Positions 1-58,488 of a stretch of DNA of 64,000 bases are shown piece by piece (within the stretch, counting starts at the first letter, position 1; the number at the start of each line of letters is the position of its first letter). The notes below the pieces were generated by a model. The model did no database searches, had not been told where the DNA came from, and saw only the letters and a program-made list of their open reading frames with translations. Position numbers and translations under genes: made by a program. The DNA lies in the IMG/VR virus record IMGVR_UViG_3300043821_000026, positions 74,503 to 138,502 of that record. One strand, given 5' to 3'. The stretch is from a virus (taxonomy: Duplodnaviria; Caudoviricetes).

Positions 1-668
1 GATGATTTTGGTAAATTAAAATCTTTTTCTATACCAGATATAAAGTATCCATTATTCTTTAAATCAATCAATTTATTTATTCCACCAATATTTTCGATAT
101 ATTCATTTGTAAATGTTATTTTTGGATGTTGATAGTAATTTGAGTAAAAAATAAAAGCTTCTTCTTCTGTGTCAAATCCTTTTACTATATCCATTTTTTT
201 ATATTGCTCTATTCTTACTTCATATTTACAATCTTCATTTAATATAATAGAGTCTTTAACATTATTAAATGTGTGTTTTTTTATATATATATTATCTGAT
301 AAATAAACATTTTTTAATCTAAAATCTTTATAGTTATTATTTAAATAATGAACATATTTATCAGAACCATTTTTATATAATAAAGATAAATATGTTGGTT
401 TACAATTAATATTAGTTATTAATCTTTTTCTATAAATATTCCATAAATTATTTTCAACAATATCTTTGACACCATTGCAATATTTGAATACAACATGAGC
501 TTTATCTCGTGGTTTTGGTTTATCATAAGTATAAAACTTACATACATCACAATGTTTACATTCATTAAATTTATTAATATAATTATTATATTCCTTTATA
601 ATATCTTTTGCATCTTTTCCATGATTAAATGTAACAAAATCTACAAAAGGTATCTTTGCATCTTCCAT
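1..668 (-). CDS. Hypothetical protein, partial (runs off the window start); CxxCxxC near the N-terminus and a possible AP2-like segment (GFDTEEEA)
   Basis: GAGGTG RBS then ATG at 668; open frame MEDAKIPFVDFVTFNHGKDAK... continues to base 1; absent from the ORF track because it has no stop in the window. Confidence 0.7.
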   Translation of the reverse strand, partial: MEDAKIPFVDFVTFNHGKDAKDIIKEYNNYINKFNECKHCDVCKFYTYDKPKPRDKAHVVFKYCNGVKDIVENNLWNIYRKRLITNINCKPTYLSLLYKNGSDKYVHYLNNNYKDFRLKNVYLSDNIYIKKHTFNNVKDSIILNEDCKYEVRIEQYKKMDIVKGFDTEEEAFIFYSNYYQHPKITFTNEYIENIGGINKLIDLKNNGYFISGIEKDFNLPKS

Positions 669-1771: not shown

Positions 1772-4711
1772 TTAATCATTATGATTGACTCTATCTTTAA
1801 GCTCTTGTTTTTTACCTGCATTCCATTTTTGTGTTACAGTAAAATATCCTGTAATTCTACTCATACTATAAACATTTTCAGAGCCACAATAAATACAAGA
1901 GTCATTATCACCATTTGCTTGTTTACCACATTCTTTGCATACTGTGAAAGCAGAAGTATATGCCCAAAATTGTATATTTTGTTTTTTAATTTTCTTAGTT
2001 AAACTCATAAGAGATTGTGGGTCCATATAAGCCTCACCTAAGAAACAATTAAGGATACAACCTGCTGGTTCATATTTATGATAAGTATTAGCGTTTTTAA
2101 TATGTTCAATAATACTTCCTTGAGAATCTACAGGTAAGTGATTACTATTTGTATAATAATATCCACCTTCAACTCCTTTACATAATATATCAGGATATAT
2201 TTTTTTATCAATTTCTGCAAAACGATGAGAACATGATTCAGCAGGAGAACCTAAACAAGCAAATCTTAATCCATATTTAGCTTTTTGTTTTTTAGAATAT
2301 TCATTCATAAATTCTAAAATTTCTTCTCCATATTTATTACCTTCAGGAGTATCTAAATCATATCCTGTAAGCATTTTAACAGCTTCATATAATCCACAAG
2401 TACCAAATGTAAATGAAAAGTTACTAATATCATATAATGGTTTACCAGTATATTTATCTTCTTGTAATAAAAACCCTAAATATCCTTCTGTATTAGCTCT
2501 ATCTTCAAAGTTTTGTTTTCTATCCAACATAGACATTGTCCCAATATTCATAAAATGTTCAAGATATTGTTTAAATTCATCCATATTATTACTGATATAA
2601 GCCATTCTTGGAAGATTAAAAGTTATGTAAGCAAAGTTTCCTACATTAAGAGTATCTATTTCCCAATTACCAGTCCAATTAGTTCCGTTAGCAGTTCTAC
2701 AATTTTCACTATGTATACCACCTAATCCACAAACATAATTATGATTATTTTCTATTGTTAAATCATATACATTATCATCATTATTTACAACTTCAATATC
2801 TTTAATAATAGTATTATTTTTTGGAGAATAATTAATACCGAATGTAACTCTATAATTTGGTTTCCAATTATTTGTTTTACCTTTTCTATTATCAATATAA
2901 AGAGTGTTTTGTCTTCCTATATATGATAAAGCATATAATACATCGGTTACTAAATTTTTATCAGAACAAGACCAAACATAGTTATTAGATTGTTTATGAG
3001 CATCTAACATTAAACCTTTAATAATATTAGCTATTTTATTTTTATCAGACCAACATTGAGGAAATGTTTTCTCCCCGTTTTTAGTATATAGTTGTACTAA
3101 TTTATCTCTTATATTTAATTCTCTAATATTAATAGAGTAAGTACCATTATTTTGTTTAGTAATATCATATTTATAACCTAATTTATCGCATAAATTAGTA
3201 ATATATTCTTTTTTCCAATTTAATTTTATATGAAATTCTATAGCATTACTATTTCGCAAAGCTCGTTCATTACTTCGTATATAACCATCAGCTAAAAAAG
3301 CACCTATAAATTCATATTCTAAATCATCAACTGGGATAAATGGTTCGTCAATATAGTTATATAATTCCATACCTACTTTTAAATTTTCAGATTTAATAAT
3401 ACCATCTTTAGTTGGTAATTTATGATTATCGGTTACTTTAAAAATATATCCATTATTACAAGTAATCTTAAATACCTTTTCAGAAACTGGTTTTTTAATA
3501 ATATTAATAACTTTATTCCATTCCTTTGTACCATCTTTATTATATGTCATTACATTATCATTTAATTGTAACTCTTGAGGATATTTAAAACCTTTATCTG
3601 TCATAACAGGGGTATCAGAAGTTAATGCCCCCATTACAGTTGTTGCTGTACCGTTTTGAGGAAGGTCTTGATTTATAAAATATGGAGTAGGGAATTTAGC
3701 TATTAATTCATGAATATTTAATAATAATTCATCATATTCTTCACCCATAAATTCATCACGAAGATTAAATAAAGTATTTGGGAAAATATGACATTTACCC
3801 TTAGCGTCACCTTCATATAAGACTTCTATAAAAGCGTCTATAATCATACGAGCTTCTTTTTTATAGTCATTATATACACCAACTTCACGACCACCGGGAC
3901 CATATGCTGTTAAATCTCGCATAAATGGTGGAACATCTAATTCTAACCCAACAGATGAAAATACTACTTGACCTTTTGATATTAAAGACATATTACAATT
4001 AAAAATAAAATTTTGAATACATTGTTTTACTTCTTCATATGTTAATCCTTCTGCAAATGGCGCTAAGAATATATTAAAGTATGGATACCCTTGACCTCCA
4101 CTAAGAACCGTAGAGCCAGCCATAAAAGCTTGTAAGAGATGATTGAGAAGTACATTTAAGCTTTTAGCTGGTGAAGCACAAGAACAGTTTATACCTTGAC
4201 CATCAATTTTTAAACCATTTTTAATGAAAAATCTGATATCATAGCTAATACAGTTTGCAGGACGAATATTATATGCTTCCATATCATGTATATGAATATA
4301 TCCATCTGTATATGCTTTGCTACATTCTTCGGGCATAGTTAATAGTGCATATTCTTTTAATACAGCATCTGATGCGTATTTAACCACTTGTTCAGGACCA
4401 AAATTAATATTAGCATTATCTTTATTACCACTATCGATTAAATTTTCTAAAGCAGATACGGATAATCCCAATTTTCTACTTTGTTTTTCTGTATCAAATA
4501 ACCCATCTTTAGTTAAATGATAATTAATCATATCTCTTATTTGTGCTGTGGAGATTTGATTAATTCCATCAATATTATTAACTTTTCTAGCTATTCTATT
4601 CTTAATATTTTCTGCTTTTTCTTCATCTAAATCAGTTTCATATAATATATGTTCTTTTATTATTTTTGGTTGAAATTTAGATATATCACCTGTACTATTT
4701 ACGACATCCAT
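1772..4711 (-). CDS. nrdD: Anaerobic (class III) ribonucleoside-triphosphate reductase with N-terminal ATP cone, intein-containing
   Basis: IHIHD, NC, MG|CR catalytic Cys, PAES, CxxC...CxxC and RITGY glycyl-radical motif; start taken as the ATG at 4711. Confidence 0.95.
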   Translation of the reverse strand: MDVVNSTGDISKFQPKIIKEHILYETDLDEEKAENIKNRIARKVNNIDGINQISTAQIRDMINYHLTKDGLFDTEKQSRKLGLSVSALENLIDSGNKDNANINFGPEQVVKYASDAVLKEYALLTMPEECSKAYTDGYIHIHDMEAYNIRPANCISYDIRFFIKNGLKIDGQGINCSCASPAKSLNVLLNHLLQAFMAGSTVLSGGQGYPYFNIFLAPFAEGLTYEEVKQCIQNFIFNCNMSLISKGQVVFSSVGLELDVPPFMRDLTAYGPGGREVGVYNDYKKEARMIIDAFIEVLYEGDAKGKCHIFPNTLFNLRDEFMGEEYDELLLNIHELIAKFPTPYFINQDLPQNGTATTVMGALTSDTPVMTDKGFKYPQELQLNDNVMTYNKDGTKEWNKVINIIKKPVSEKVFKITCNNGYIFKVTDNHKLPTKDGIIKSENLKVGMELYNYIDEPFIPVDDLEYEFIGAFLADGYIRSNERALRNSNAIEFHIKLNWKKEYITNLCDKLGYKYDITKQNNGTYSINIRELNIRDKLVQLYTKNGEKTFPQCWSDKNKIANIIKGLMLDAHKQSNNYVWSCSDKNLVTDVLYALSYIGRQNTLYIDNRKGKTNNWKPNYRVTFGINYSPKNNTIIKDIEVVNNDDNVYDLTIENNHNYVCGLGGIHSENCRTANGTNWTGNWEIDTLNVGNFAYITFNLPRMAYISNNMDEFKQYLEHFMNIGTMSMLDRKQNFEDRANTEGYLGFLLQEDKYTGKPLYDISNFSFTFGTCGLYEAVKMLTGYDLDTPEGNKYGEEILEFMNEYSKKQKAKYGLRFACLGSPAESCSHRFAEIDKKIYPDILCKGVEGGYYYTNSNHLPVDSQGSIIEHIKNANTYHKYEPAGCILNCFLGEAYMDPQSLMSLTKKIKKQNIQFWAYTSAFTVCKECGKQANGDNDSCIYCGSENVYSMSRITGYFTVTQKWNAGKKQELKDRVNHND
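2702..3628 (-). mobile_element. Intein (309 aa) in NrdD with degenerate LAGLIDADG domain; N-terminal Ala
   Basis: MG|ALTSDTPV ... VTDNH (block B) ... FIGAFLADGYI ... VYDLTIENNHNY (block F) ... IHSEN|CRT. Confidence 0.9.
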
Positions 4712-5088
4712 ATAATCATCTCTTAATTTGTTTAATTTTAAAAAAAATTTTAATAAAATAAGTTTAATTTTATATTTTATTTTCAATTATAATGTATATT
4801 TTTTAAAGTATATAAAGATTTTTATTTTTTTCTTTGTTTTTGCAAATCTTTATCAACTTGACTTGCAGTTCTCTTTCTGCAACTATCAAAGTATCTACAA
4901 TCCCAGTCACACTTCATTAATGAAATATCTTTATCTCTTTTTTTACAATAACATTTATTCTTTATTAGCTTCTTGATTGTTGTCTTTTTCATCTTGCTCT
5001 TTCTCCAATTCACAATCTTCCATATTAATAATTTTTCTTAATTTATTACAGTAAACTTTTCCTTGTTTCGCTAACTCTATTAAATCCA

Positions 5089-5715
5089 TTATATAGCCTC
5101 ATTTAATCTTATTTTTATAAGATAATTATTAATATCTTCATAATAATTATCAGATATATTGTTAACTTTATCATTTGATAATTGAAATTTTATATCAAGC
5201 AACTTTTTATTTAAAGCAAAATATTCATCTATCGAATTTACACTTTTTGGTTTAAATTCTTTATCATATAAAAAACAATAATCTTCCATTATTTTATTAT
5301 ATTCATCTATATCGTAATTTTTAGAATCAATGATAGAATCAATTCTATTAATTAATTCATCATTAAAATAAAACATTGGTACTGTATCATTTAAAATAGA
5401 AAGAATATCTAATCGTTTTTGATTATATTTTGTTTTAACATCTGTATCATGTGATAGTAGTTTGTAAAATGATATATCTCCTTTATTATATATATTTCTT
5501 AATACAATGCCTATTTCAAAAAAATTAAATATAACATTACTATTTATTTGACTATTTAAAGTAGGTGATGGTTCATGTGTAACATCTAAAAAATTTTTTG
5601 TATTATCTATATATACACCAGTAATATAATCATCAATCTGATAAATATTAAAAAAATAACGTTTCTGTTCAGAAAAATGATTAACAATAGAATCTAAAAT
5701 AGCAGGAGAAATCAT
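5089..5715 (-). CDS. Hypothetical protein
   Basis: 208-aa ORF translationally coupled to the upstream gene. Confidence 0.7.
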   Translation of the reverse strand: MISPAILDSIVNHFSEQKRYFFNIYQIDDYITGVYIDNTKNFLDVTHEPSPTLNSQINSNVIFNFFEIGIVLRNIYNKGDISFYKLLSHDTDVKTKYNQKRLDILSILNDTVPMFYFNDELINRIDSIIDSKNYDIDEYNKIMEDYCFLYDKEFKPKSVNSIDEYFALNKKLLDIKFQLSNDKVNNISDNYYEDINNYLIKIRLNEAI

Positions 5716-6209
5716 TAAATCTCTCCTTTATGTTTATCATCTTGATAATCACCATCATATTTTATATCACAATTATTTAAATCAAAGCTCATCATTTGAG
5801 CAAATCTTTCATTCATTTCGATACAAAAATTATTTTGACTATGATTTATCATCATAAAAGTTAATGTACCATTGTATCCAGCATCACCAACGCAAGTACG
5901 AACATCTACCCCACATCTTAATAATGTACTACGAGGGAAATATAATTGTACTTGGTCTTTTGGAATATTCATTGGTTCTGATACTTCTGCAATATATACT
6001 ATGTCAGGATATAAAGTATATATTCCATTTTTAGTATTAACGGGTTTATATATTGGTAAGTTTTTATGTCCATTATAAATACCTGTAGGACATCCATCAT
6101 TATCTTCAATAATATATAATTGTCCTAATCTTAAATCTACACCATTTGGTTGTAAAGTTTCACTATCTGTTTCGTAATTATCTTTTAAATATAAATTTCC
6201 ATTAATCAT
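5715..6209 (-). CDS. dut: dUTPase / dCTP deaminase family protein
   Basis: QPNGVDLRL, PRSTLLRCG, DAGYNG, ERFAQM, YDGDYQ motifs; GGTGA RBS before the ATG at 6209. Confidence 0.88.
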   Translation of the reverse strand: MINGNLYLKDNYETDSETLQPNGVDLRLGQLYIIEDNDGCPTGIYNGHKNLPIYKPVNTKNGIYTLYPDIVYIAEVSEPMNIPKDQVQLYFPRSTLLRCGVDVRTCVGDAGYNGTLTFMMINHSQNNFCIEMNERFAQMMSFDLNNCDIKYDGDYQDDKHKGEI

Positions 6210-6876
6210 ATTGTTCACCATTTTCTATTTTATAAAATTCTGTATATAAAAATCTTGCAAATTTAACTGCTATCTTTCTTTGTGTCATATATTTAATATG
6301 TTTCATTGTATAATTCGAATGTTTAAATAAATATTTATCAAAATATTCGTTATACATTTGTTTATATTCAGGGTTGTATTTAATTAACTTTTTAACAACT
6401 TTTAATATAACTTTATTTAATCTATCATTATATTGAATTTTTGAAGTATCCTGTTTAGGATTACCAATTATTTCACCATATTGTTTATTTTTTTTAGTAA
6501 TTTTTTGATATGAATTTCCCATTTTATTGACTGGAGATAATCCACAATAATATATGAATGAATTTTTATTCTTAAATCTATTAATATCTTTAATTAAAAC
6601 AATTAACTCACCTGCATCATAAATAGATATTCCGTCTATATGTTCTAAGCAATCATAGTATTCTGGAATAAATGATATTGTTTGTTTAATTTTTTTATAT
6701 AATAAATCTAATGGAGCGTCTAACGAATTAATACTAATATTAATTAAAGAATTTCTTGCATCATTTGTTAAACCTATAAAATTATTAATTCTAGATTTAT
6801 TTGATTTTTTAGCTTCAAATAATGTTTTATTAGTATTGATTAAGATATTTAATACTTGTAATTGTGCATCATCCAT
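6202..6876 (-). CDS. IS110/Nop-domain protein lacking the RuvC domain (TasA-like)
   Basis: LEHIDGISIYDAGELI..DINRF....F..YCGLSP, YNDRL and H.....RK....F...LY match the IS110 C-terminal/Nop fold; only a coiled coil precedes it. Confidence 0.75.
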   Translation of the reverse strand: MDDAQLQVLNILINTNKTLFEAKKSNKSRINNFIGLTNDARNSLINISINSLDAPLDLLYKKIKQTISFIPEYYDCLEHIDGISIYDAGELIVLIKDINRFKNKNSFIYYCGLSPVNKMGNSYQKITKKNKQYGEIIGNPKQDTSKIQYNDRLNKVILKVVKKLIKYNPEYKQMYNEYFDKYLFKHSNYTMKHIKYMTQRKIAVKFARFLYTEFYKIENGEQYD

Positions 6877-7517
6877 TATCTCACCTTATTAATTCCATTA
6901 ACAGTTTTTTGTCCTATACCTTTTATATTAAGTAGTTCTTCATCTGTTGCTTGTAATACACCTAATGGTGTTTTAAATTCTTTTAGTAATAATTTAGCTG
7001 TTTTTTTACCAACATAATCAATACCTAAAAGAACTTGAATTTTCGAACTAGCGTCTTTCTTTTGAACAATAGGAGGTTCAATTGGTTCAGTATTTTTATT
7101 AACAGTATTAATTATACTTTCAATTAACAATGGCATTGATTTTTTTGTTTCACATTGTAATACTGGAACTTTATATCTAACAGATAAAGAAGCTATATTA
7201 CTATAGTATTGTTTTCTAGTAAAATTTTGATATTTATAATTAATATCGTCTAATTTGCCATAAATAATAATATAACAAAAATCATATTTTTCTTTCATCC
7301 TTAATGCTTGGTCTTGAATGTGTCTACTATTAAAGCTAGACACGAAATCACTTACACTTTTAAGTTCAATCATAATATTAGATAAATCTTGTCTTTTAAT
7401 TAAAACATCACCATCTTCATTATGAGATACGGAGCAAATGCCTGAAAAGTATTCATCAATTATTTTTATTGTACTTGAATCTTCTCTATCATCTATTAAA
7501 ATTTTTAAATCATTCAT
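6876..7517 (-). CDS. ERCC4/XPF (Hef-like) nuclease with HhH motifs
   Basis: IDDRE, GDVLI, IELKSVSDFVSS, C-terminal GIDYVGKK and IKGIGQKT. Confidence 0.9.
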   Translation of the reverse strand: MNDLKILIDDREDSSTIKIIDEYFSGICSVSHNEDGDVLIKRQDLSNIMIELKSVSDFVSSFNSRHIQDQALRMKEKYDFCYIIIYGKLDDINYKYQNFTRKQYYSNIASLSVRYKVPVLQCETKKSMPLLIESIINTVNKNTEPIEPPIVQKKDASSKIQVLLGIDYVGKKTAKLLLKEFKTPLGVLQATDEELLNIKGIGQKTVNGINKVR

Positions 7518-8116
7518 TTATAATCATCTTCCGTTATACGATACCAATCATACTTATCATTAACGTATAAGGAATGATAAGCTGTGGCTTCTATAGCTTT
7601 TTTTATTCTATTACTTGGTTTATTTCTTTTAGTAGAATATAATGAACCAAGAGCTAATTCTTTACCGACTCCTATAGCTACATAATCTCCATCAGGTTCA
7701 AATAAACCAAGATTATCTTCAATCTCAAATATATCACCATTATATACTATTAAAAAATTACTATTAGTTTTAATTTGAGTACCATTCATATCTACTAGTC
7801 CTGATAGTTCTAATTCAGTTTTTAAACAATATAGGAAAGAATTAATTAAATATGTTCTAAAATCTGTTCCTTGTATATAATCAGGAGCTTTATAAGAATA
7901 TCTAATAAAATTGAAAATTGAAAATATACCTGAAAAACCGATAATTAAATGTCTTGTATCAATCTTATTTCCATTTTCATCTACCATATTAAATGGTTTA
8001 GAACAAATTTTAGGATTTTTTGATATTTCTATATTATTTCCTGAACTGATTGCACTATCACTACCAATATATACATCACCTGTTTTTTTATATTTAATTG
8101 CTACAATTACTGTCAT
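7514..8116 (-). CDS. Ntn-hydrolase protease (HslV/proteasome beta-like)
   Basis: N-terminal M-T-V-I-V-A, GSDS, PKI, AIGVG..LALGSL. Confidence 0.8.
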   Translation of the reverse strand: MTVIVAIKYKKTGDVYIGSDSAISSGNNIEISKNPKICSKPFNMVDENGNKIDTRHLIIGFSGIFSIFNFIRYSYKAPDYIQGTDFRTYLINSFLYCLKTELELSGLVDMNGTQIKTNSNFLIVYNGDIFEIEDNLGLFEPDGDYVAIGVGKELALGSLYSTKRNKPSNRIKKAIEATAYHSLYVNDKYDWYRITEDDYK

Positions 8117-8124
8117 ATTTTACC

Positions 8125-9066
8125 TCATATATATAAATAATTTCCATTACAACTTTCATCACATAATCCTTCTAATTTTAATCTTGCACAACTTGGGAAT
8201 AAAACATCAGTTCTATCATATAAATATTCTATTTGATGTTCTGAATTAACACAATGATTAAATTTATTTTCACTAAGAAATCCTTTCATGATATTATGAA
8301 TATCTTCTATTGAGTATCCCATATCCCTCAAGTATGTTATTATATAACCTCTTTCTTGATAGCCAAGATTAGGTTCTAACATCATTTTTGATACACAAGG
8401 TATATAAGCATTACTAAATATGATTTTATTATTTTTATTGATAGGTTGATGTATATTATCAGCTTCAGTATCATATTTTTGTAAATCAAGTTTGTTTAAA
8501 TATAATGTAGGGTGAATATTTCGAGGACTTGTTGCTAAACTTTTAATTTCCTGCAAGGTAAGTTTGATTATTTCATCACTAAATAATGGTATACAATACC
8601 TTCCTGTTTTTAAATTAATTGTATTAGGACAACGACGCACTCTCATTAAGTCACCAATTACAGAATTATCACTTAAAGTATTTGTTTTATGATGAAGTTC
8701 TGTTACGAAGTTTTTAATAGCTTTTTTAGGATTTTTCAATGAAACAGATGTATCAACATCTATTAATATATGAAATCCTCTACCTGAATATAATACATTA
8801 TGTGCTATATTATTATCTCTTAAATATTTAACAACAATTTGGCAATTATTATATGCCACTATATCATCATTATTTATTGGGTCAAAATCTAAAAATACAT
8901 ATTTTACAATTGCATTATACGCTTTTGGGTCTTCGTTAAAATTATAAACTGAAATATATAAATCTTTCCAACCATTATTGTTGTTAATTATAGTATCCCA
9001 TTTTGTGTCATCAATTGGTAATGTAATTCTAACGTTTGGTTTTAGAAATATCTGACCAACTATCAC
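8125..9066 (-). CDS. Archaeo-eukaryotic primase, PriS catalytic domain fused to a PriL-like Fe-S C-terminal domain
   Basis: FLDFD, SGRGFH, RVRRCPNTIN; C-terminal PC...PSCARLKLEGLC...C. Confidence 0.88.
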   Translation of the reverse strand: MIVGQIFLKPNVRITLPIDDTKWDTIINNNNGWKDLYISVYNFNEDPKAYNAIVKYVFLDFDPINNDDIVAYNNCQIVVKYLRDNNIAHNVLYSGRGFHILIDVDTSVSLKNPKKAIKNFVTELHHKTNTLSDNSVIGDLMRVRRCPNTINLKTGRYCIPLFSDEIIKLTLQEIKSLATSPRNIHPTLYLNKLDLQKYDTEADNIHQPINKNNKIIFSNAYIPCVSKMMLEPNLGYQERGYIITYLRDMGYSIEDIHNIMKGFLSENKFNHCVNSEHQIEYLYDRTDVLFPSCARLKLEGLCDESCNGNYLYI

Positions 9067-9484
9067 TTACATCACCGACATATAGTTCTAATCTTCTATC
9101 TAAAACTTCATATATTAATCGTCTAATATAATCACATTCTGGTGATAGATATATTCCTCTACCATTCATAATATCAATATATGGCCAATCACGACATTCT
9201 CGCCATCTATCTTTCCATATATCACATACATATAATTTATAATTATCTTCATCATGTTGTAAATGTTCACATTCCATACTTGAACAGCAATTACCACATC
9301 TAATACAGTAATCTTTTGATTGTATATAATCATAGGTAAATTCAATCGGTGTAGTAACTATAGCTTCTTCAATTATATCTGCTAAAATATCAGTATCTAA
9401 ATCTGGAAATTTATTATGATAATAGTCTAATAATTCTTTTAATAATTTAAGATAGTTAGCAAATTTAGAAATTTTTTCTTCCAT
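9029..9484 (-). CDS. YkgJ/CxxCxxCC family Cys-cluster protein
   Basis: CIRCGNCC...CEHL...CDIWKDRWRECRDWP. Confidence 0.8.
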   Translation of the reverse strand: MEEKISKFANYLKLLKELLDYYHNKFPDLDTDILADIIEEAIVTTPIEFTYDYIQSKDYCIRCGNCCSSMECEHLQHDEDNYKLYVCDIWKDRWRECRDWPYIDIMNGRGIYLSPECDYIRRLIYEVLDRRLELYVGDVSDSWSDISKTKR

Positions 9485-10203
9485 TAGAAACCACCTTCAA
9501 TACTACATCTAGGTTTATATGGACAATATTTACATAAAAATTGTCTATTGGGTTGAAAATTATTTTCTTTAATTTTATTATTAATAAAATCTAATAATTT
9601 TAAACTTGCATTTATATCCTCTTGAGTTAATAAAGTACCTTTGTTAATTTCCCCTCTAACTTTTGCAAACCTAAAATTATTATCTCTTGTAAAAAATATA
9701 CCAACATATGAAACTGGTAACTCAAATTCGTCTTCTAATAAAACAACATAATATGAAAGTTCTAATAAATATTTTTTAACTCCACCTGTTTTACCAGTTT
9801 TATAATCTACTACCACTAGCTCCCCATCTTTAATTAATACTAAATCTGCTAAACCTGATAGGTTATATTTTAAATTATGAATATAATATTCTGCTGTATA
9901 TATTCTAAAACCTTCAGCAAAACAATCATATATAAAATCTGCAAAATGTGAAAGATGATTTTTAAATTCACTTGCTCTATCATATTGCATTAAAGCATTA
10001 TTTATATCATCGATTGACATATTTTCTATCTCTTTATTAGAATATTGTTTAACAAATAATTCAAATATTTTATGTATAGCAAGTCCTATATCTAATGCAG
10101 AGCCTTTTTCAGGACTTGGTTGTGGTAAGTTATCTATATTTTCATATTTAAATCGTCTAGGACATTGTAAATATGTATTAACCTTACTTTTTGATAATTT
10201 CAT
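9484..10203 (-). CDS. Cas4-like/RecB-family PD-(D/E)XK exonuclease
   Basis: LSKS...CPRRF, G..IH, GLADLV, VVDYKTG, C-terminal CKYCPYKPRC. Confidence 0.88.
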   Translation of the reverse strand: MKLSKSKVNTYLQCPRRFKYENIDNLPQPSPEKGSALDIGLAIHKIFELFVKQYSNKEIENMSIDDINNALMQYDRASEFKNHLSHFADFIYDCFAEGFRIYTAEYYIHNLKYNLSGLADLVLIKDGELVVVDYKTGKTGGVKKYLLELSYYVVLLEDEFELPVSYVGIFFTRDNNFRFAKVRGEINKGTLLTQEDINASLKLLDFINNKIKENNFQPNRQFLCKYCPYKPRCSIEGGF

Positions 10204-12646
10204 GTATATCACCATTTAATTTATCATTCTTCTTAACATTGGCGAACGGTTTTTTTGAGAACTTAAATTCAATATAATCAGACGCTACAATATCTTTTTC
10301 TATGTTATTATAAGCATTTGAACAACTCATAATAACAATATTTTTACCATCGTACCCATCAATTCTTAAACAGTCGTTTCCTTTTTTACTTTTAAAGTAT
10401 GTAATTTTTTTTACAACTGCATATTTTGCTTGATGTTCGTTTAAGCTTTTAATTATTGTTATATATGAATTACTAATATATTGGTACTCATTTATAAACA
10501 TTTCTTTATCCATTTCTAAATTAATAAAAAAATGTGCATAAAATTTACCCTTCCATGTATGGCATTTAACAATATATGGGTCACCAACTTTAAGGTTATC
10601 AATATATCGATTTAATACATTTTGATTTACACTAATAGATATATTATTACCTTTATCTTGAATATGGATAATACTGTATCCTTTTTTGTTATCTATATCT
10701 ATACATATTCCTTTAATATATACTTCATCAACATCAATGTTGGGATTGATATCATCAGTATTTGTTATATATCTATCATATTCGGTTTCATATTTATTAA
10801 TCAACTCTTCATGAGGGCTAAATTTTAATACTGCATATTCATATTTTAGCCTATCTTTATCAGACCAATCTTCATCAACTTTATCTTGATTAAATGTGTT
10901 ATATATTTCATTTCTGTTCCCAAATCTATCAAATGCACCTGCATATATTAGATTATTAACTACAGATTTATTAACTTTTCTTGGTCGTCTTTTTTGTAAA
11001 AATAAATCAAATGAAAAATAAGGCTGATGTAGTAAAATTTCTTCAATAGCTTTATCTCCAACTTTATCAATAGTTGATAGTCCCATATAAATATTTTTTC
11101 CCATAAATATAGTATCTCTTTGAGATATATTAATATCAGGATTATGTAAAACTAAATCCATATTTTTTATTTCAGATAATATTTTATTCTTTTTTTCATC
11201 ATCTTTTGTATGATTTAAACAAGCTACAGAAAATTCTGCTGGATAATATGTTTTTAAATACCCTGTATAATAACTTATTACTGCATAATTTTTAGCATGA
11301 GCTTTATTAAAACTATATGAACTAGATTTTTCAATCTTATCCCATATTAATTCTGCTGTTTCTTTAGATACGTTATTATTAAGACAACCATCAATAAACT
11401 TTGGTTTATATTCAGTAAAAATATAATCTAATTTCTTACCAATACCTTTTCTTATATTATCTGCATCAACATCAGTTAATCCTGCTAATACCATACATAT
11501 TTTCATTGCTTGTTCTTGATAAACAATTGCACCTTTTGTTTCTTTTAATATAGGCTCTAATCTTGGGTCATCATATTCAATTTCCTCTTCACCAAATTTT
11601 CGTGCAATATATCTATCTGCATCACCAGAATCCTGTGAACCGGGTCTTACTAAAGCTAAAGCCGCAATTAAATCATTAAAGCAATCTGGTTTCATCTTTT
11701 TAATATATGATGATGCTGATGGAGTTTCTAATTGAAATATATTTAATGGATTTTTTAGTATTGTATTATAAACTTTTTTATCTTCATATTCTGTTGGTAA
11801 TTTAAAGGTATCATTATTAATTAATTTAATTGTATCTTCAATAATAGATAATGTATTTAATCCTAATGTATCATTTTTTAAAAATTTTAAACTATCACAT
11901 CTATGACCATCATAGGATACACAATCTACACCATTAACTCTTACTGTTGATGAATAATTCTCTATTGAATCAGGGAATAATAATGTCCCACCTGCGTGAA
12001 TACCATATGCCTTTATTAATCCATTAATTTTTTTAAAATTTTGTTCAACTTTTGGATATTTATTAAAGAAATCCTGTACTTTTTTGATTTCGTATATATC
12101 ATCAACAGTCATATCATCAGTTATTAGAGATGTTATTTGATTTACTTCTTTAAATGGTACATTAAATACTCGTGATACATCTTTAATACTAGTTTTAATT
12201 GTGAATCTTATTAAATTTGGAATACTAAATGCACAATCTCTACCAAATTTATCTTTAATTAAATCTAATGCTTCTTGTCTTCTTGTTTTAGGAATATCTG
12301 TATCTATATCAGGCATTGAGTTTTTAATTCTAGTTTTATTTATAAAACGAGAAAACATTAATCCTTCTTTTAATGGGTCAGTAGAAACTATATTAAGACA
12401 ATAACATAATAAACTACCACCTGCTGAACCTCTACCGGGACCTAAAAACATTCCTTCAGATTTTAAAAGATTGCATATATAAGAAGTGTTTAAAAAAAAG
12501 TCAGATAGATTTGCATCAGTAATAATATCAAGTTCCATTCTTAATCTATCTTCGTATTCTTTACCTGATAAATGTCTTTTCTTAAAGCCTTTTAAAGCCA
12601 TTTTTCTTAAATAATCATCATTGTTTATATTAAATGTTTGTTGCAT
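10184..12646 (-). CDS. dnaE: Family C DNA polymerase (DnaE) catalytic subunit without PHP domain
   Basis: GPGRGSAGGSL, PDIDTD, HAGG, KNDTLGL, IFQLE, RPG, YQEQ, YSFNKAHA; the ATG overlaps the PHP gene stop (TAATG). Confidence 0.93.
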   Translation of the reverse strand: MQQTFNINNDDYLRKMALKGFKKRHLSGKEYEDRLRMELDIITDANLSDFFLNTSYICNLLKSEGMFLGPGRGSAGGSLLCYCLNIVSTDPLKEGLMFSRFINKTRIKNSMPDIDTDIPKTRRQEALDLIKDKFGRDCAFSIPNLIRFTIKTSIKDVSRVFNVPFKEVNQITSLITDDMTVDDIYEIKKVQDFFNKYPKVEQNFKKINGLIKAYGIHAGGTLLFPDSIENYSSTVRVNGVDCVSYDGHRCDSLKFLKNDTLGLNTLSIIEDTIKLINNDTFKLPTEYEDKKVYNTILKNPLNIFQLETPSASSYIKKMKPDCFNDLIAALALVRPGSQDSGDADRYIARKFGEEEIEYDDPRLEPILKETKGAIVYQEQAMKICMVLAGLTDVDADNIRKGIGKKLDYIFTEYKPKFIDGCLNNNVSKETAELIWDKIEKSSSYSFNKAHAKNYAVISYYTGYLKTYYPAEFSVACLNHTKDDEKKNKILSEIKNMDLVLHNPDINISQRDTIFMGKNIYMGLSTIDKVGDKAIEEILLHQPYFSFDLFLQKRRPRKVNKSVVNNLIYAGAFDRFGNRNEIYNTFNQDKVDEDWSDKDRLKYEYAVLKFSPHEELINKYETEYDRYITNTDDINPNIDVDEVYIKGICIDIDNKKGYSIIHIQDKGNNISISVNQNVLNRYIDNLKVGDPYIVKCHTWKGKFYAHFFINLEMDKEMFINEYQYISNSYITIIKSLNEHQAKYAVVKKITYFKSKKGNDCLRIDGYDGKNIVIMSCSNAYNNIEKDIVASDYIEFKFSKKPFANVKKNDKLNGDIHEIIKK

Positions 12647-13551
12647 TAGCACCACCAATCCTCATCAAATAAAGCATCTAATTCTTCGTATCGATTAAAT
12701 TCAGGTATACGAACTTGAGGTTCTTCTAATTGAGCATTACATTTATTTGTAATATCAATTGTATTTTTAAATGATTTCTTTAATATATCCTCATGTTCAA
12801 AGCCACTTTGTTCTGCCCATAATTTTATCCTATCAGGACTTCCTAAAGAATTAGATTCCATTGATTGATAAACATCTTCGATATTTTTATGATATCCAAT
12901 TGCTTCTATAATATTTCTAACATTAGCGTCTTCAGGATTTAAAAAATGTGAATCAGATGTTACTATTGTTGGAATACCTAATTCATCATTTAAAGTTACA
13001 ATACCTTCATTAATTTTTGCTTGAGCTTCAAATTTAGGGTGCATTTGTAATTCAAGATAATAATCTTCACCAAATTTTTCATAAAAATTTTCTGCAATTT
13101 TATATGCTTTTTGATAATCATCTTTCATTAATGCTTCTCCTATATCACCTAATGCACAAGCAGAAGTGATAACTAATCCATCAGGATTTTTCCATAATTC
13201 TTCATATGATAATATTGGTTTGTAATAAAAATTATCGTTAGCTATTTTATTTAATTTTCGAATATTATATAATCCTTGTTGATTTTTTGCTAATACTATT
13301 AAATGTCTTCTATCTTTTGTCTTCTCTCCAGTATATGTAGTTCTACAATAAAATTCACAACCAAATATAGGTTTTATATTTTTTTCTTTAAAAGCATCAT
13401 TAATATCATACCATGCACCAATAGACGCATGGTCTGTTATAGCACAAGCTTGTTGATTAAAATCACTTAATAATGAAGCTAAGTCATTTGGTTTAATTAT
13501 TGCGTCTAATATACTCCATGTTGAATGTAAATGTAAGTTTGTAAAATTCAT
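12646..13551 (-). CDS. Stand-alone DnaE PHP domain protein (probable proofreading nuclease)
   Basis: LHLHSTWSILD, ITDH, KPIFGCEFY, HLIVLAKN, SACALG, YLELQ, TSDSH. Confidence 0.93.
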   Translation of the reverse strand: MNFTNLHLHSTWSILDAIIKPNDLASLLSDFNQQACAITDHASIGAWYDINDAFKEKNIKPIFGCEFYCRTTYTGEKTKDRRHLIVLAKNQQGLYNIRKLNKIANDNFYYKPILSYEELWKNPDGLVITSACALGDIGEALMKDDYQKAYKIAENFYEKFGEDYYLELQMHPKFEAQAKINEGIVTLNDELGIPTIVTSDSHFLNPEDANVRNIIEAIGYHKNIEDVYQSMESNSLGSPDRIKLWAEQSGFEHEDILKKSFKNTIDITNKCNAQLEEPQVRIPEFNRYEELDALFDEDWWC

Positions 13552-13749
13552 TTATATACCTTTTAATTGTTTAACTGTAACACCAAATAGTACTGTCGGT
13601 TCAGGTATAATTATACTTATTATATTTTCGTATATATCTAAGCCAACTTCTATACCATAAGAATACCGACGCTCAACTATTGTAGTGTCTACGTTTTTTA
13701 TAAATCTTAATTCATCAAATTCTTCATTATATTCGATGTTCCAATTCAT
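13552..13749 (-). CDS. DUF2283-like small protein
   Basis: YNEEFDELRF...GIEVGLD...IISIIIP pattern. Confidence 0.5.
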   Translation of the reverse strand: MNWNIEYNEEFDELRFIKNVDTTIVERRYSYGIEVGLDIYENIISIIIPEPTVLFGVTVKQLKGI

Positions 13750-14639
13750 TCATCATCATTCTCACCATCATCTTCGTTGGGGATATTTGAAAAAAGTGAA
13801 TTAATTTTACCAGCGTCCCAAACATATTTATTAAGTTTGTTATTAACTGTAGCGAAAACCACTTTCTTTTTTATATTTAAAATATTTGAACGGTCTTTAT
13901 CCATCATTGCAATAAAGTTAATAACATGAGGATTTTTTTCATCTTGTTCTTTGGAATATATTAATCTATGAGAACAGGAACTATGTAGTCTTTGTTTAAC
14001 AGATGCAAATTTTTCATCATCAGGTTGTCTAATGAAATCATCATGTCCAATAAAGAAACAATCAATTGGTAATTGTAAAAATACTTCAGTACATTCACGG
14101 AAATTTTTAGCTCTAATTTTCCAGAATTGAGTATTTGCACCTGAATCAGGAGCTATATTTTTTTCTTCTCTCATTAAATTTTCACATGATTCAAGTAAAA
14201 AACTAATTCCATCAATGATAATAGCTCTAATTTTCATTCCTTCATCTGATAGTTCAGATATAGCTTGTGCGGCAGACCTAAGATTATCTACAAGACCTTG
14301 ATGGTCAATAACTGATACACCTTTTGCATTAACCATTGTTGCATATGGGTTGTAATGTTTTATCATATCTTTTTGATATGAATCAAAATTAAATTCTTTA
14401 ATAATTTCTAATGCACTATTATCAATATCAATAACAATGATTTTTTCATCTTCGCTCATATCTTGTAATAACATTGATATAACACTACCAGTTTTGCCTG
14501 TAGAATCTGCTCCTAAACATAATACATTTTTAGGAGTTTTAGGATTCATTACTACATTACTTTGTTCAAATATTTCTTTAATTTCATCTTTCAATGTTTT
14601 TCTTGGTTTTCTTGTTGCTTCTGCTTTCTCTTTAAACAT
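13746..14639 (-). CDS. P-loop ATPase (AAA_24/Sak4-like recombination protein)
   Basis: Walker A GADSTGKT, IVIDID, Walker B IIIDG, FFIGH. Confidence 0.75.
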   Translation of the reverse strand: MFKEKAEATRKPRKTLKDEIKEIFEQSNVVMNPKTPKNVLCLGADSTGKTGSVISMLLQDMSEDEKIIVIDIDNSALEIIKEFNFDSYQKDMIKHYNPYATMVNAKGVSVIDHQGLVDNLRSAAQAISELSDEGMKIRAIIIDGISFLLESCENLMREEKNIAPDSGANTQFWKIRAKNFRECTEVFLQLPIDCFFIGHDDFIRQPDDEKFASVKQRLHSSCSHRLIYSKEQDEKNPHVINFIAMMDKDRSNILNIKKKVVFATVNNKLNKYVWDAGKINSLFSNIPNEDDGENDDE

Positions 14640-14981
14640 TATCATTCACCTCATTACGAACTTTTTGTAATCGTTCGTATATAAAACCTCTTAATTGTGG
14701 AGTTTGTATATATTTTAAATCATCTTCAAGCATTTCTATTTCTTTTAAATTATTATTCTTGTTGCTCATTATTTTCACCTTCTTTTTTAGGTGGGTTTAA
14801 AAACATTAATCGTTCAAACATATCATTTTGATACTTCCACAATAAATTTTCTGCATATGCATATACCATAGGATGTTTGATATTTTGCATATCAATTCTT
14901 AAAATTTGTATTTTAGAGCGAAGACTTCTTGTCATATTACTCATTATGACAAGAGGGTCTTCAAATTCGCTATCTCCCATT

Positions 14982-20053: not shown

Positions 20054-20770
20054 TCATATTTTTACCTCATTCTTAATATATTTACGTGCTTCAGGAATAT
20101 CATTTTCATATATATGAATACTAGCACTAAGTGTTGTTATACTTCCAAAATCAATTAATTCGTTATATGATTTATCTTTGTTATAATTTCTCATAATAGA
20201 TTGAACCATATATTGGACTGCAAAAAGATTACTATAATATCCTAAAAACCCATCATGAGAACGCCATATACCTGTAGTATATAATTTATTATCTCTAATT
20301 TTACAATCAAGCATCATAAAGCATGGAATTTCGTCGCATTGAGTATCAATAAAAGGGTCATATGTGATAGCAACAGCTCTATTAGTATTACTATTTTTAT
20401 TTAATCTTTTTACAATTTCTTCAATTTGGTCTACTGCAAAATGACTTCTTAATCTATTACCATAAGTATATGTAAATCCATTATTCATTGGATTCATAAA
20501 TTCCGTAATATATTCTGCAACTAATGTTGGTTTAAATGGATAATCGTCATTATCATAAATATGAGATTGTAGGCCATTAAAAATTGCATGTGGTAATAAT
20601 CGTTTATAAGACTCGCTTCTATCTAAATTTAATGGATTTGTTAGTCTTGTAACTACATCTAAGCACTCAAGCCATTTACCTCCACGCTCATTATCATGCA
20701 TAACGCCATTATCCAATATATACTTAACCAATGTTTTATGAACGTTTTGTATAGTATCTCCTTCAATCAT
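20054..20770 (-). CDS. thyA: Thymidylate synthase, archaeal type
   Basis: FTYTYGNRL, TNRAVA, IPC, WRSHD, N, SIHIYE. Confidence 0.9.
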   Translation of the reverse strand: MIEGDTIQNVHKTLVKYILDNGVMHDNERGGKWLECLDVVTRLTNPLNLDRSESYKRLLPHAIFNGLQSHIYDNDDYPFKPTLVAEYITEFMNPMNNGFTYTYGNRLRSHFAVDQIEEIVKRLNKNSNTNRAVAITYDPFIDTQCDEIPCFMMLDCKIRDNKLYTTGIWRSHDGFLGYYSNLFAVQYMVQSIMRNYNKDKSYNELIDFGSITTLSASIHIYENDIPEARKYIKNEVKI

Positions 20771-52878: not shown

Positions 52879-53199
52879 TTAAGCTATTTCTATTCTATCA
52901 ATTATTTCTAATGGATAAACTCCTTTAGTTTCATAGAAATTTGGATAACCAATGTCAATATCTTCTCTAAGGTCGGAAATAGTGATAATTCCATCATTAT
53001 CAATACTGATATTAGATGTTAATCCAAGCATAGCCACTTTATCTGTATTTTTAAAAAATACGTTACAATCTTCACTATGAGAATAAACTAAAGTATGTTC
53101 ATTCTCAATAGTAAGTTTTACTTCTTCTCTACTTTCAGGTATACAAATTAAACCGATTGTATTAATTAAATTTTCACTTGTGTACATATTTAATCTCCT

Positions 53200-53257
53200 T
53201 AAGCTCATAATGAGCTTATACAACTCCTAAGAGTTGTATAAGACCATTTGGTCTTAT
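53200..53257 (-). repeat. Three-hairpin intergenic element (TAAG/CTTA core)
   Basis: ATAAGACC-AAAT-GGTCTTAT-ACAACTC-TTAG-GAGTTGT-ATAAGCTCA-TTA-TGAGCTTA. Confidence 0.85.
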
Positions 53258-53713
53258 AAATTAGTAATTCCTAATTCATCTGCCTCATTTAATAAATATG
53301 AGTCAGTAATTACTTCAAATAAATAATCATTTATTCTGTTTCTAGCTTCTTTAATACTCATTTCGCCAAATAAATTGACTTCAAAGGTATATAAACCATT
53401 ACTTTTACCTAAACAACAAACATCACTCATTGCACCATCTACATAATGGTCAGAGAGTTTACCATCAAGTTTAGTAACCATATCTTCACCACCTAAAAAG
53501 CTATTAATTTTACTTAAAGCTTCTTCAGGTACTTTAAATACCCAGTCATATAACTCATCTTCTTCCCTGTGTATAGGAGGAATGGAAAAGCTTTGGATTG
53601 ATTTAAGTGGAACTCTTATGGTTCTGCTACTTAAAGTAATTCCATTTCGACTGACTGTTTCGCCTTTGTTAAGTTTGTGGTCTTCGTAGTTCATAATTAA
53701 TTCTCCATTGATT

Positions 53714-53780
53714 AAAACTGCATAGCAGTCTTATTATAGCTTCTTTTAGTCAAAGCTATAATAACACTACTATTAGTTTA
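53714..53780 (-). repeat. Three-hairpin intergenic element, divergent copy
   Basis: TTATTATAGCTT/AAGCTATAATAA overlapping AAGACTGC/GCAGTTTT ahead of the GGAG RBS. Confidence 0.55.
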
Positions 53781-53781
53781 A

Positions 53782-53995
53782 ATATTGTGATGTCTTTCCT
53801 GCCGTTAAGGGCATGACCATCTCCCACGCAGATACCGAAGTACCCTATGAGAGTTGCATAGGTAAGCAAGGACTGTAAAAACAGTTTGCCGTTTAATAAG
53901 ACAATTATGCTCCAATTTGTTAATTTGGAGTGAGTTATCTCTTCCAACTCATTCTTAAGGTGTTTCAACCAGTATAGGAGTTACCTCCCTACAAT
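53782..53995 (-). ncRNA. Highly structured leader or ncRNA
   Basis: GC-richer; stems TGAGTT/AACTCA, CTCCAA/TTGGAG, AAACGG/CTGTTT, CCTATG/CATAGG, GGTAC-TTCG-GTATC, TGCC/GGCA, GATG/CATC. Confidence 0.6.
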
Positions 53996-54232
53996 ATACA
54001 TATTTGTTCAAACCACTATATAAAGGTATCGATAACCTTCAAGTGGTTTAACATATGAATTGTGGGGACTTGCCTCCTACAATATACATATTTGTTTCAC
54101 CCCATATATAAAGGTATCGATACCAAATTAATGATAACAAATATTTTTTTCTTAAGGTGTTTCAACCATCTTTGGGAGTTGCCCCCCTCCGATATATACA
54201 TATTTGTTGCACCCCCTATATAAAGGTGTCGG
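53953..54232 (-). promoter_or_regulatory. Three tandem promoter units (BRE-TATA plus conserved initial transcribed region)
   Basis: CGAYACCTTTATATA-N8/9-AACAAATATGTATAT three times, each followed by a GNRA-capped hairpin. Confidence 0.8.
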
Positions 54233-54703
54233 TGCAATATCATATGCTTAATAATATATAATTTTTTTTGAAATTTTATAAAAATTCCTATTACCACTAT
54301 CATAATGGTAGTAGTAATAGCAACTTTTATTAATTTTTTTCATTAAATTTTATTAATTTTTTATCAAAATTTTTATTCTCTATATAGAATATTTTTATAT
54401 TATATTTTCTATTCTATCTTTAGGAATATTATAATAAAATTTTTCTATATATATAATATAATATCTCTAATAAGTATTAATATCTCTATTATTAACTCCT
54501 ATATAGATAATTTATATATATCTCTTATTATATACTCTTATATACAAATTACTCTTACTATACATCTCTATATAGTATATTATTTATTTAAATTTGCTTT
54601 TATTTTTTTAAAGAAATTTAGTGGCTCTATTACATAAATAGCTACCTCTATGGCTTTCTTTAGCTAATTAAACAGCAAATTGGCTTCTAATTTCATAATT
54701 ACC

Positions 54704-54935
54704 CTCTTAAAGGGAATATTAATTAAACCCTCTTAAAGGTGCATTTAAGTCAGACTCTCTTAAAGGACTGAATTAATTAACAACTCTCTTAAAGGACTGA
54801 ATTTCATCAACGCCCTCTTTAGGGGGCTTTTTGATAAAAATTGTATTTATTTCCTGCCCTCTTAAAGGAAGATTATTTTCGATAAAAAAATAATCTTAAA
54901 AAAAATTGTATTTTAAAACTGCCCTCTTAAAGAGC
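54704..54935. repeat. Seven CTCTTAAAGG-like repeats next to a very AT-rich tract (candidate origin/iterons)
   Basis: Starts at 54704, 54730, 54757, 54786, 54815, 54859, 54924; AT-rich tract at 54240-54620. Confidence 0.7.
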
Positions 54936-57363: not shown

Positions 57364-57719
57364 TAAAAATAAAAAAGAAAAAAAGAAAATAAAATTAATT
57401 TTTGTAATCCTTAACCATTTTATTACCTCCTTTTCGGCTTATCTATTCAAAATCATGCTTGGAAGCTAATTCTGCTATTTCTAGCAGATATTCAACTTCC
57501 TCCATAGGTTTAATAACTCCTAATCCTTTAAGGATTAGTCTGCACTCTTTTGAAGTGCGATATGCACTCCATAATGCGTCTATTTTAGTTTTACCTGCTC
57601 CCACTATGTTATCCACATAGTAAGTACCATTGATTTGATTATATGTTATTTCAACCATTTTATTACCTCTGATTTTTTTTTATACAAGCTTAAACTTGTA
57701 CAATATAGTATTTGTTTTA

Positions 57720-57739
57720 ATAGTATATAAAGGTATCGA
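57720..57739 (-). promoter_or_regulatory. Strong BRE-TATA promoter heading the leftward early-type operon
   Basis: TCGATACCTTTATATACTA-N5-AACAAATA, the same consensus as the 54.0-54.2 kb units. Confidence 0.75.
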
Positions 57740-58173
57740 TTATATAAAGTGTATATATGGGCTTTATATAGGCTATATATGGCTATATAGTACTGTATGT
57801 ATGTATATACTACTATATATGTGTTATATTATGTATACTATTATATATGTATGTTATATTGAATATTAATTAATATTATGTAATAAAACAACAAATAAAG
57901 AATAAATATGCAATTAATAGCAAAATAAAGCACATAAATAGTTTATTTTTAAAAAAAAAGCCAAAAAAAATCGCCCCCCCCCGAAAATAAGCACGTAGCA
58001 TCGAGTTTGCGATGGTCGTCATGGGGTTATCTCATGATTTCGTCGATTTTCAAAGTGTCCCATTATTTACGGCGAAAACTAATTCGTACATTAGCGAATA
58101 AGTTGTCCCACTTTTAGTGTCCCAGTTTGAAAAATAAATAAAAAAATTGTATGTACATTATGTACATACAAAA

Positions 58174-58488
58174 TTAATAATATCTTAGAGCATGAAAATT
58201 AGTTTTTTCCAAATATCCTAGCTCTTTTAAACAAAAAATGACTGTTTGTTCGGATATTTGAAGTTTTGTGCTGATAAAATCAATATCATTACCCTCTTGG
58301 AATAAATGATTTACTTGGTCTACCAGTAATTTATGTTTTTTTGTATTTTGCGTCACATTAGGTCTTTCAATCTTATATTGTCGCAAAATTCGAGATAAAG
58401 TCGATTTGGGTGTCCCAGTTTCCATTTCAATCTCCCTTAAACTCATTTCTTCGTCCACATATAGACGTTTAAGTTCATCAATTCGCAA
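58174..58488 (-). CDS. Double helix-turn-helix protein
   Basis: LYVDEEMSLREIEMETGTPKSTLSRILRQYKI; GGTGA RBS plus TTG. Confidence 0.8.
   Translation of the reverse strand: MRIDELKRLYVDEEMSLREIEMETGTPKSTLSRILRQYKIERPNVTQNTKKHKLLVDQVNHLFQEGNDIDFISTKLQISEQTVIFCLKELGYLEKTNFHALRYY

Follow-up and report, generated by a model that had tools for sequence, protein, structure and literature searches.

A putative nuclease-free TasA-type protein encoded beside an XPF-like nuclease gene in the replication block of methanogen viruses related to PhiF1

The window analysed here is a stretch of 64,000 nt. It makes up the 3' half of one virus record in IMG/VR, 138,502 bp long (IMGVR_UViG_3300043821_000026; genome G000, about 95% complete). 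The window encodes a 224-aa protein that, on its profile matches and predicted fold, is a divergent branch of the Tas family of the nuclease-free TasA type, and not a remnant of an IS110 transposase. Tas proteins are the partners of TIGR (tandem interspaced guide RNA) arrays. The TasA-like gene lies within a conserved replication block, downstream of an XPF-like nuclease gene, and no array was found in this genome or in that of the cultured Methanobacterium virus PhiF1. The relationship between this virus and PhiF1 was verified by direct comparison. The other relatives compared were three IMG/VR contigs (L002, L003, and L015) and a contig binned with a Methanobacteriaceae metagenome-assembled genome, or MAG (L005). 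The gene and its main elements are as follows:

6202-6876, minus strand: TasA-like gene (224 aa, ATG start), predicted coiled coil and Nop-type C-terminal domain, without nuclease
6676-6870, minus strand: helical hairpin (residues 3-67; from the predicted structure and its alignment to TaTasR 108-303), the putative coiled-coil dimerisation element of Tas and Nop5
6574-6588, minus strand: DxxRF motif (D97-I-N-R100-F101), with D, R, and F invariant across the subfamily including PhiF1 ORF53, aligned with DIDRF of TaTasR
6427-6531, minus strand: beta "wedge" insertion (residues 116-150), predicted with a lower local confidence score (pLDDT)

A sequence-only reading of the window had described a protein with a coiled coil and the IS110 C-terminal/Nop fold, lacking the RuvC DEDD domain. 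The structural analyses agree with this description. The Pfam scan matched PF02371 (Transposase_20) alone (E 9.4e-9, residues 75-128), and the DEDD domain PF01548 was absent. Neither RuvC nor HNH was found: there was no nuclease match in Pfam, and the AlphaFold2 (AF2) model begins at the coiled coil. This model, built from 53 relatives (pLDDT 91.9, predicted template-modelling score 0.85), contains a helical hairpin (residues 3-32 and 38-67) followed by a helical C-terminal domain, with a small beta insertion at residues 116-137 of lower confidence. The fibrillarin-binding N-terminal domain is absent from the model. The IS110 SG loop had been read as replaced by GLSPVNKMGN; this segment was located at residues 112-121, and the subfamily alignment showed no conserved Ser there. 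The wedge is Cys-free in this protein and Cys-rich (CxxC...CxC) in the relatives P0013 and P0034; PhiF1 ORF53 has lost it by deletion. The last helix of the model spans residues 191-219. Since five residues remain after it, the Y/H loop for tigRNA processing (about 27 residues) is absent from the C-terminus. In this respect the modelled protein resembles the stem-loop Tas clades.

The best NCBIfam match was the TIGR-Tas model NF052498 (TIGR_Tas_endo; E 2.6e-13, 50.5 bits), which aligned residues 61-212 with profile positions 58-212 of 215. The IS110 model gave a weaker match (25.8 bits) over a shorter stretch. A match to NF052498 below its curated cutoff is not discriminating alone, because the model also fires in control genomes, presumably on IS110 transposases. 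The placement was therefore tested by a HMMER search, by a profile comparison with PDB sequences, and by fold comparison. The exhaustive HMMER search, with a profile of three close homologs against 1.84 billion representatives, identified 68 relatives, all of 385 aa or less. All 53 relatives that were scanned match the Tas model, and three of them carry the IS110 DEDD domain. The NF052498 scores are graded, from 50.5 bits for this protein to 68-89 bits for the relatives and 124-159 bits for true members. Against the PDB sequences, a profile of eight sub-cutoff subfamily members matched TaTasR (9MTY, the TasR RNP structure from PMC12045711) with E 1.9e-20, taking in the coiled coil and the whole C-terminal domain; the same profile matched IS621 with E 0.026 and partial coverage.

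Fold comparison gave 9MTY as the top match in Foldseek. VIA superposed 194 residues onto TaTasR 108-303, bypassing the RuvC domain (Z 20.3, root-mean-square deviation 2.4 Å). The Z scores were 17.9 for TasH, 15.6-15.9 for IS621 and ISCro4, and about 8 for Nop5 and Prp31; those for Nop5 chains (6.6-8.1) lie in a range that common helical matches also reach. The alignment to IS621 was confined to its residues 124-314. Tas proteins are thus the closest by both profile and Z score, in line with the TasA-like assignment of the sequence-only reading. In the profile alignment, the residues invariant in the subfamily, including PhiF1 (D97, R100, F101, Y110, P115, Y171, Y175, and F206), are all common to TaTasR, as are H193 and R200-K201, which are near-invariant. 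The nearest clusters in the ESM Atlas are viral solo-Transposase_20 proteins of about 225 aa. The Tas placement corrects the database label "transposase" of these genes.

The TasA-like gene is present as a single copy in the 138.5-kb genome. Its dN/dS (ratio of nonsynonymous to synonymous substitution rates), calculated against two relatives, was 0.09-0.2 for the whole gene, and 0.01-0.06 for the core residues 84-115 containing DxxRF. The whole-gene values establish that the gene is real, and it is under purifying selection. The least constrained part is a strain-variable patch at residues 34-83 (dN/dS per segment 0.14-0.53). Diversifying selection on this patch was considered and rejected; with these omega values and saturated dS, the patch is relaxed rather than positively selected. 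The dS of the gene is 0.89 against its counterpart in L002 (7806-8471), whereas the flanking genes have 0.13-0.28 and the two genomes are otherwise near-identical. A co-occurring strain allele in run X6 could not be aligned over 6627-6764. Together, the high dS relative to the flanks and the unalignable allele suggest that alleles of this gene have been exchanged between strains by recombination.

Members of the subfamily cluster occur on contigs up to 157 kb. Among 201 Methanobacteriaceae genomes searched, the subfamily was found only in the MAG that contains the viral contig. The sequencing runs carrying this virus, searched with positions 5000-9000, belong to about 12 studies and are metagenomes of wastewater and bioreactor sludge, and these sources point to anaerobic digesters. 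None of the runs listed was an RNA run, since the two with an RNA-Seq label were flagged as probably DNA.

The neighbouring genes are all encoded on the same strand:

6876-7517, minus strand: ERCC4 + HhH2 (XPF/Hef-like) nuclease gene, directly upstream of the TasA-like gene with a TAATG stop/start overlap
5715-6221, minus strand: dCTP deaminase/dUTPase-like gene, its start overlapped by the last 20 nt of the TasA-like gene
7514-14645, minus strand: remaining genes of the replication block, in the same orientation (HslV-like peptidase, AEP primase-like, 151-aa open reading frame (ORF), PD-(D/E)XK Cas4-like nuclease, DnaE catalytic, PHP-domain, and 299-aa ORF)
13746-14645, minus strand: the 299-aa ORF within this block
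1772-4786, minus strand: anaerobic ribonucleotide reductase NrdD with an intein, at the downstream end of the conserved block

The ATG of the TasA-like gene and the stop codon of the nuclease gene have one base in common (TAATG), and the 3' end of the TasA-like gene overlaps the dCTP deaminase/dUTPase-like gene; both overlaps had been noted in the sequence-only reading. Genes are densely packed on either side, and no array lies next to the TasA-like gene. The XPF-like neighbour matches PF02732 (E 2.7e-13), HHH_2, and the Hef and Xpf models of NCBIfam. Its catalytic signature (D9-x-R11-E12, G36-D37, and E51-x-K53-x3-D57) is invariant in four orthologs. The R of ERK in the GDXnERKX3D motif is L in this protein and R in L005. 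The replication block is syntenic with those of L002, L003, L005, L015, and PhiF1. The TasA-like genes of these relatives compare with the present one as follows:

L002: 86% protein identity, directly after XPF, TAATG overlap
L003: 69% identity, directly after XPF, TAATG overlap
L015: 36% identity, directly after XPF, TAATG overlap
L005: 29% identity, after XPF with a small helix-turn-helix (HTH) ORF between
PhiF1 ORF53: about 25% identity, after XPF with a small unannotated HTH ORF between

The gene is therefore found downstream of XPF in six lineages (this virus and five relatives), down to about 25% identity. The two genes abut directly in four of the six, always with the TAATG overlap, and the HTH ORF separates them in the other two. 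Other genes of the block (DnaE, Cas4-like nuclease, and AEP primase) show a similar divergence, with 35-42% identity in L005 and L015. The HslV-like gene, which in this genome is upstream of XPF, lies downstream of ORF53 in PhiF1, where the dCTP deaminase gene also has another location.

Several other features of the block were observed. NrdD has 1004 aa, with an intein (PF14890) at residues 408-686 and a weak LAGLIDADG match. Its orthologs are much shorter (670 aa in L003 and 596 aa for PhiF1 ORF51), consistent with the lack of an intein. An apparent gap at 4787-5088, between orf208 and NrdD, is occupied by a Cys-rich ORF of 63 aa (4822-5013, minus strand). This ORF is kept in L003 with codon-like variation, has no Pfam match, and is followed by a TTTATATA TATA box. 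In PhiF1 (MK994522), the annotated gap between ORF54 and ORF53 (53108-53323; 7109-7324 of locus L008) encodes the HTH-like protein, which is unannotated and has about 70 aa. Its homolog in L005 is at 5752-6000, and it shows weak homology to 58174-58488 of the window.

Guide RNAs were searched for in several forms. Dual-repeat arrays were sought with a scanner for k-mers recurring at a near-constant period. The positive controls were the arrays of Acidianus tailed spindle virus (ATSV), recovered with 22 units, and of YNP1, recovered with 7 units. No dual-repeat TIGR array was found in the 138.5-kb genome, where chains occurred only at the level of shuffled sequences. The same scan of PhiF1 found no TIGR array but only identical iterons, GTATTACTGAGG, without spacers. 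The loci of L002, L003, L005, and L015 contained no dual-repeat array either. As the scanner recovers both control arrays, the absence of a dual-repeat array from the two near-complete genomes is solid. The sequence-only reading had reported no adjacent guide array, and for dual-repeat arrays this holds for the whole genome. However, about two thirds of the published tas loci have no detected array (6,685 arrays at 20,096 tas loci, with TasA the commonest form; Xu et al. 2026, 10.64898/2026.09.09.750476), so this absence is less unusual than had been implied. The ATSV control is itself of note. Its repeat_region of 915 nt after ORF B343 (KU645528 9232-10146; 4831-5745 of locus L011) has 22 units with a 38-nt period, each TGCACAYRAGCAA-N9-TCAATAA-N9. 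The half-units differ in their boxes and the gaps are unequal; the region looks like a TIGR array with diverged boxes, which same-box fixed-step scanners miss.

Stem-loop units (box C-N9-box D twice, inside a stem) were scanned with our own implementation of the published TIGRFinder rules, run without a positive control. The scan gave one unit in the genome, equal to the chance expectation, and a single non-canonical unit would escape it. The unit (455-486, minus strand) was rejected as chance, being part of a coding ORF; moreover, its boxes differ in L003 while the "spacers" are kept. A motif-agnostic stem-loop scan gave 2,240 units against 1,840-1,972 in shuffled sequences with no box pair enriched, and is powerless at 27% GC. 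No archaeal box C/D sRNA (small RNA) gene was found in this genome or PhiF1, with no matches to the strict pattern; one loose match proved to be a ribosome-binding site and start codon. Rfam at E<=1 returned nothing beyond five tRNAs, and a comparison of the intergenic regions found no non-coding sequence common to this genome and PhiF1. Two apparent non-coding gaps were rejected as guide loci, 4787-5088 being the Cys-rich ORF and a promoter, and PhiF1 53108-53323 being the HTH ORF. The regions proposed earlier as guide sources (685-942, 1402-1550, and 53.8-54.2 kb) showed no dual-spacer box C/D signature in the genome-wide scans, and their proposed role is unsupported.

The repeats at 51.4-58.2 kb, including those in the 53.7-55.1 kb region, were also rejected as guides. 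In none of them do two variable 9-nt blocks stand between conserved boxes, and they read instead as three-hairpin linkers, TATA-box repeats, or CYCTCTTAAAGG motifs. Some of these repeats have features of their own. The sequence of those at 53.95-54.24 kb reads as tandem archaeal TATA promoters. A 47-nt repeat occurs in four copies (53988-54234 and 57695-57741), carrying the archaeal TATA consensus, TTTATATA, on the minus strand. Three tandem copies, 88 and 112 nt apart, lie upstream of a leader (53700-53990) that is richer in GC, about 290 nt long, and has no ORF of at least 80 aa; the copies are possibly stacked early promoters driving a non-coding RNA. The CYCTCTTAAAGG mini-hairpin motif has at least seven copies at 54700-54930, spaced by 25-65 nt, beside a very AT-rich tract (54240-54620). 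This cluster may represent either regulatory sites or an origin. The PhiF1 iterons (3621-3748, 4842-4926, and 5470-5543 of locus L009) are of the GTATTAC type, perfectly identical, and spaced by 16/21 nt. The stretch of about 3 kb that contains them is mostly non-coding and is likely an origin of replication.

The reading we tentatively prefer, at slightly less than an even chance, is that the protein binds RNA and occupies a nucleic-acid target without cutting it, serving viral replication or repair, with a guide encoded outside any array. The coiled-coil hairpin would dimerise the protein, as in TasR and Nop5. Because the subfamily-invariant residues are all common to TaTasR, the Nop-type C-terminal domain probably retains RNA binding. 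The protein might then bind a small box-C/D-like RNA, and this RNA would direct it to a nucleic-acid target, to be occupied and not cleaved. The guide might be a single or non-canonical viral RNA, or a host RNA. Since the Y/H processing loop is absent, a guide would have to be a stem-loop (snoRNA-like) RNA that other factors mature. The activity would serve the replication and repair programme of the virus itself, rather than a mobile accessory role. Other TasA proteins show RNA-guided DNA binding and transcriptional repression, and R198 of TaTasR is assigned a contact to the box-D uracil (Xu et al. 2026, 10.64898/2026.09.09.750476). The R of DxxRF appears to correspond to R198 by the SEQRES index of 9MTY, although this numbering equivalence is tentative.

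Four observations weigh against this reading. The searches found none of the tested kinds of guide RNA in this genome or PhiF1, and the RNA-guided function proposed from the sequence is to that extent unsupported. The score of the protein (50.5 bits) does not reach the curated cutoff of NF052498, which is 100 bits. The wedge, which separates the DNA strands in TasR, varies greatly within the subfamily and is missing from PhiF1 ORF53; this speaks against canonical dual-strand invasion as the conserved function. Finally, the deep and stable synteny within a replication block is unlike the mobile accessory context that is usual for TIGR-Tas.

Some of these observations would be explained if the Tas scaffold had been repurposed without a guide. 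In this case it would act as a dimeric DNA-binding or DNA-bending factor of replication and repair, for example on origin iterons or on branched intermediates of the neighbouring XPF, with the use of RNA lost. This, the main rival, is possible but somewhat unlikely. The lack of a guide of the tested classes in two near-complete genomes, the fact that the gene behaves like a core gene of the replication block down to about 25-37% identity, the dispensable wedge in PhiF1, and the identical, spacer-less PhiF1 iterons are all in line with it, and TasR is known to bend DNA by about 180 degrees (PMC12045711). However, the residues common to the RNA-binding C-terminal domain of TaTasR all stay invariant, no Tas or Nop-domain protein that works without RNA is known, and the stem-loop and single-unit searches have low power at 27% GC. 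Alternatively, the protein might form an unfused nuclease-Tas pair with XPF, a translationally coupled complex in which XPF supplies in trans what RuvC and HNH supply in cis in TasR and TasH. XPF is upstream in all six lineages with the TAATG overlap in four (the HTH ORF intervening in two), its ERCC4 catalytic residues are invariant, and the HslV-like and dCTP-deaminase genes relocate around the conserved pair; nuclease domains have also been fused repeatedly to the Tas core (PMC12045711). On the other hand, the whole block is syntenic, so that adjacency alone is weak evidence, and the HTH ORF is interposed in L005 and PhiF1. There is no ERCC4-Tas fusion among the 68 relatives from the exhaustive search (all of 385 aa or less), the only extra N-terminal domain in those scanned is DEDD (3/53), and a search aimed at longer fused proteins was empty, which is weak evidence. 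Co-folding of the TasA-like protein with XPF scored 0.00, which is evidence neither way, and no literature linking TIGR-Tas with ERCC4 was found. The recruitment of XPF suggested by the sequence-only reading is thus unsupported apart from the conserved adjacency with translational coupling, and the paired complex is regarded as quite unlikely. A related proposal is that a TasA-like protein fixed in the replication block works with the co-translated XPF, either as a two-gene RNA-guided nuclease with non-array guides (host box C/D sRNAs or viral transcripts) or as the first guide-free Tas scaffold; this is considered unlikely.

Two further explanations relate the protein to its more distant structural neighbours. 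It might mimic Nop5 and bind the box C/D sRNAs or ribonucleoproteins (RNPs) of the host, as guides or in competition with host Nop5. The archaeal host possesses box C/D sRNPs, the protein combines a coiled coil with a Nop-type domain and lacks the fibrillarin-binding domain, and no virus-encoded guide was found by the array and box C/D scans. This conjecture is nevertheless very improbable, because the structure resembles Tas (Z 20) far more than it resembles Nop5 (Z about 8), and Nop5 depends on kink-turns bound by L7Ae. A decayed and functionless fragment of an IS110 transposase would fit the Pfam name Transposase_20 and the label "transposase" of the relatives in database records. This explanation is refuted by the missing DEDD domain, the single copy with an intact frame under purifying selection, the synteny across six lineages, and a subfamily profile that favours Tas by 18 orders of magnitude. 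The claim that this is a resident viral gene and not an insertion-sequence remnant is accordingly upheld by its single copy, dN/dS, and synteny.

Among known systems, TasA is the most similar (Faure et al. 2025, PMC12045711; Xu et al. 2026, 10.64898/2026.09.09.750476). As described in these papers, it also has a coiled coil and a Nop-type domain, no nuclease, about 220 aa, and viral members, and its stem-loop clades lack the Y/H loop as well. The present protein differs in its sub-cutoff score (50.5 vs 100 bits), in the lack of a TIGR array in this genome or PhiF1, in a wedge that is variable or deleted in the subfamily, and in a gene that is fixed beside XPF in the replication block rather than a mobile accessory. 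TaTasR (9MTY) is the best match of known structure and shares the motifs DxxRF, Y..Y, and H..NRA.RK..F. However, it has an N-terminal RuvC domain, a C-terminal extension past the aligned region, and a dual-repeat array, none of which is found here, and its wedge is shorter. An array-less Tas branch described from dense viral genomes likewise has no detectable array and no intergenic room (Xu et al. 2026, 10.64898/2026.09.09.750476). Its members are compact TasR proteins in which the coiled coil is missing, whereas here the coiled coil is present and RuvC is missing. IS110/IS621 (PDB 8WT6) has a homologous coiled coil and C-terminal domain with the PF02371 core (Z about 15.6). Unlike IS110/IS621, this protein has neither DEDD/RuvC nor a conserved catalytic Ser after GL(T/S)P, and its gene is non-mobile and single-copy, without an upstream non-coding region for a bridge RNA. 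PhiF1 ORF53 (QGH71209.1, "transposase 20 superfamily-like protein") is the syntenic ortholog near the ERCC4 nuclease. It keeps the invariant core and matches the same Tas model at 38.5 bits, but shares about 25% identity over the aligned part, lacks the wedge, and is preceded by the small HTH ORF that follows XPF. The supplementary text of the Science paper holds no PhiF1 or methanogen entries.

A TasA protein without an adjacent array is not new in itself, as array-less tas loci are already common. What is new is a sub-cutoff, "transposase"-labelled branch that is fixed beside XPF among the replication genes of methanogen viruses of the PhiF1 kind, with no array in two near-complete genomes, a dispensable wedge, and a cultured virus-host pair. 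The founding papers call the natural role of TIGR-Tas, and notably of the nuclease-free TasA, unknown. This subfamily is a case of a Tas protein that looks like a core gene and not an accessory gene for defence or competition. Most TIGR-Tas loci are metagenomic and have no host to work in. The lineage described here includes the cultured pair of PhiF1 and Methanothermobacter thermautotrophicus, and therefore the RNA cargo of the protein, if any, and its effect on replication are directly testable.

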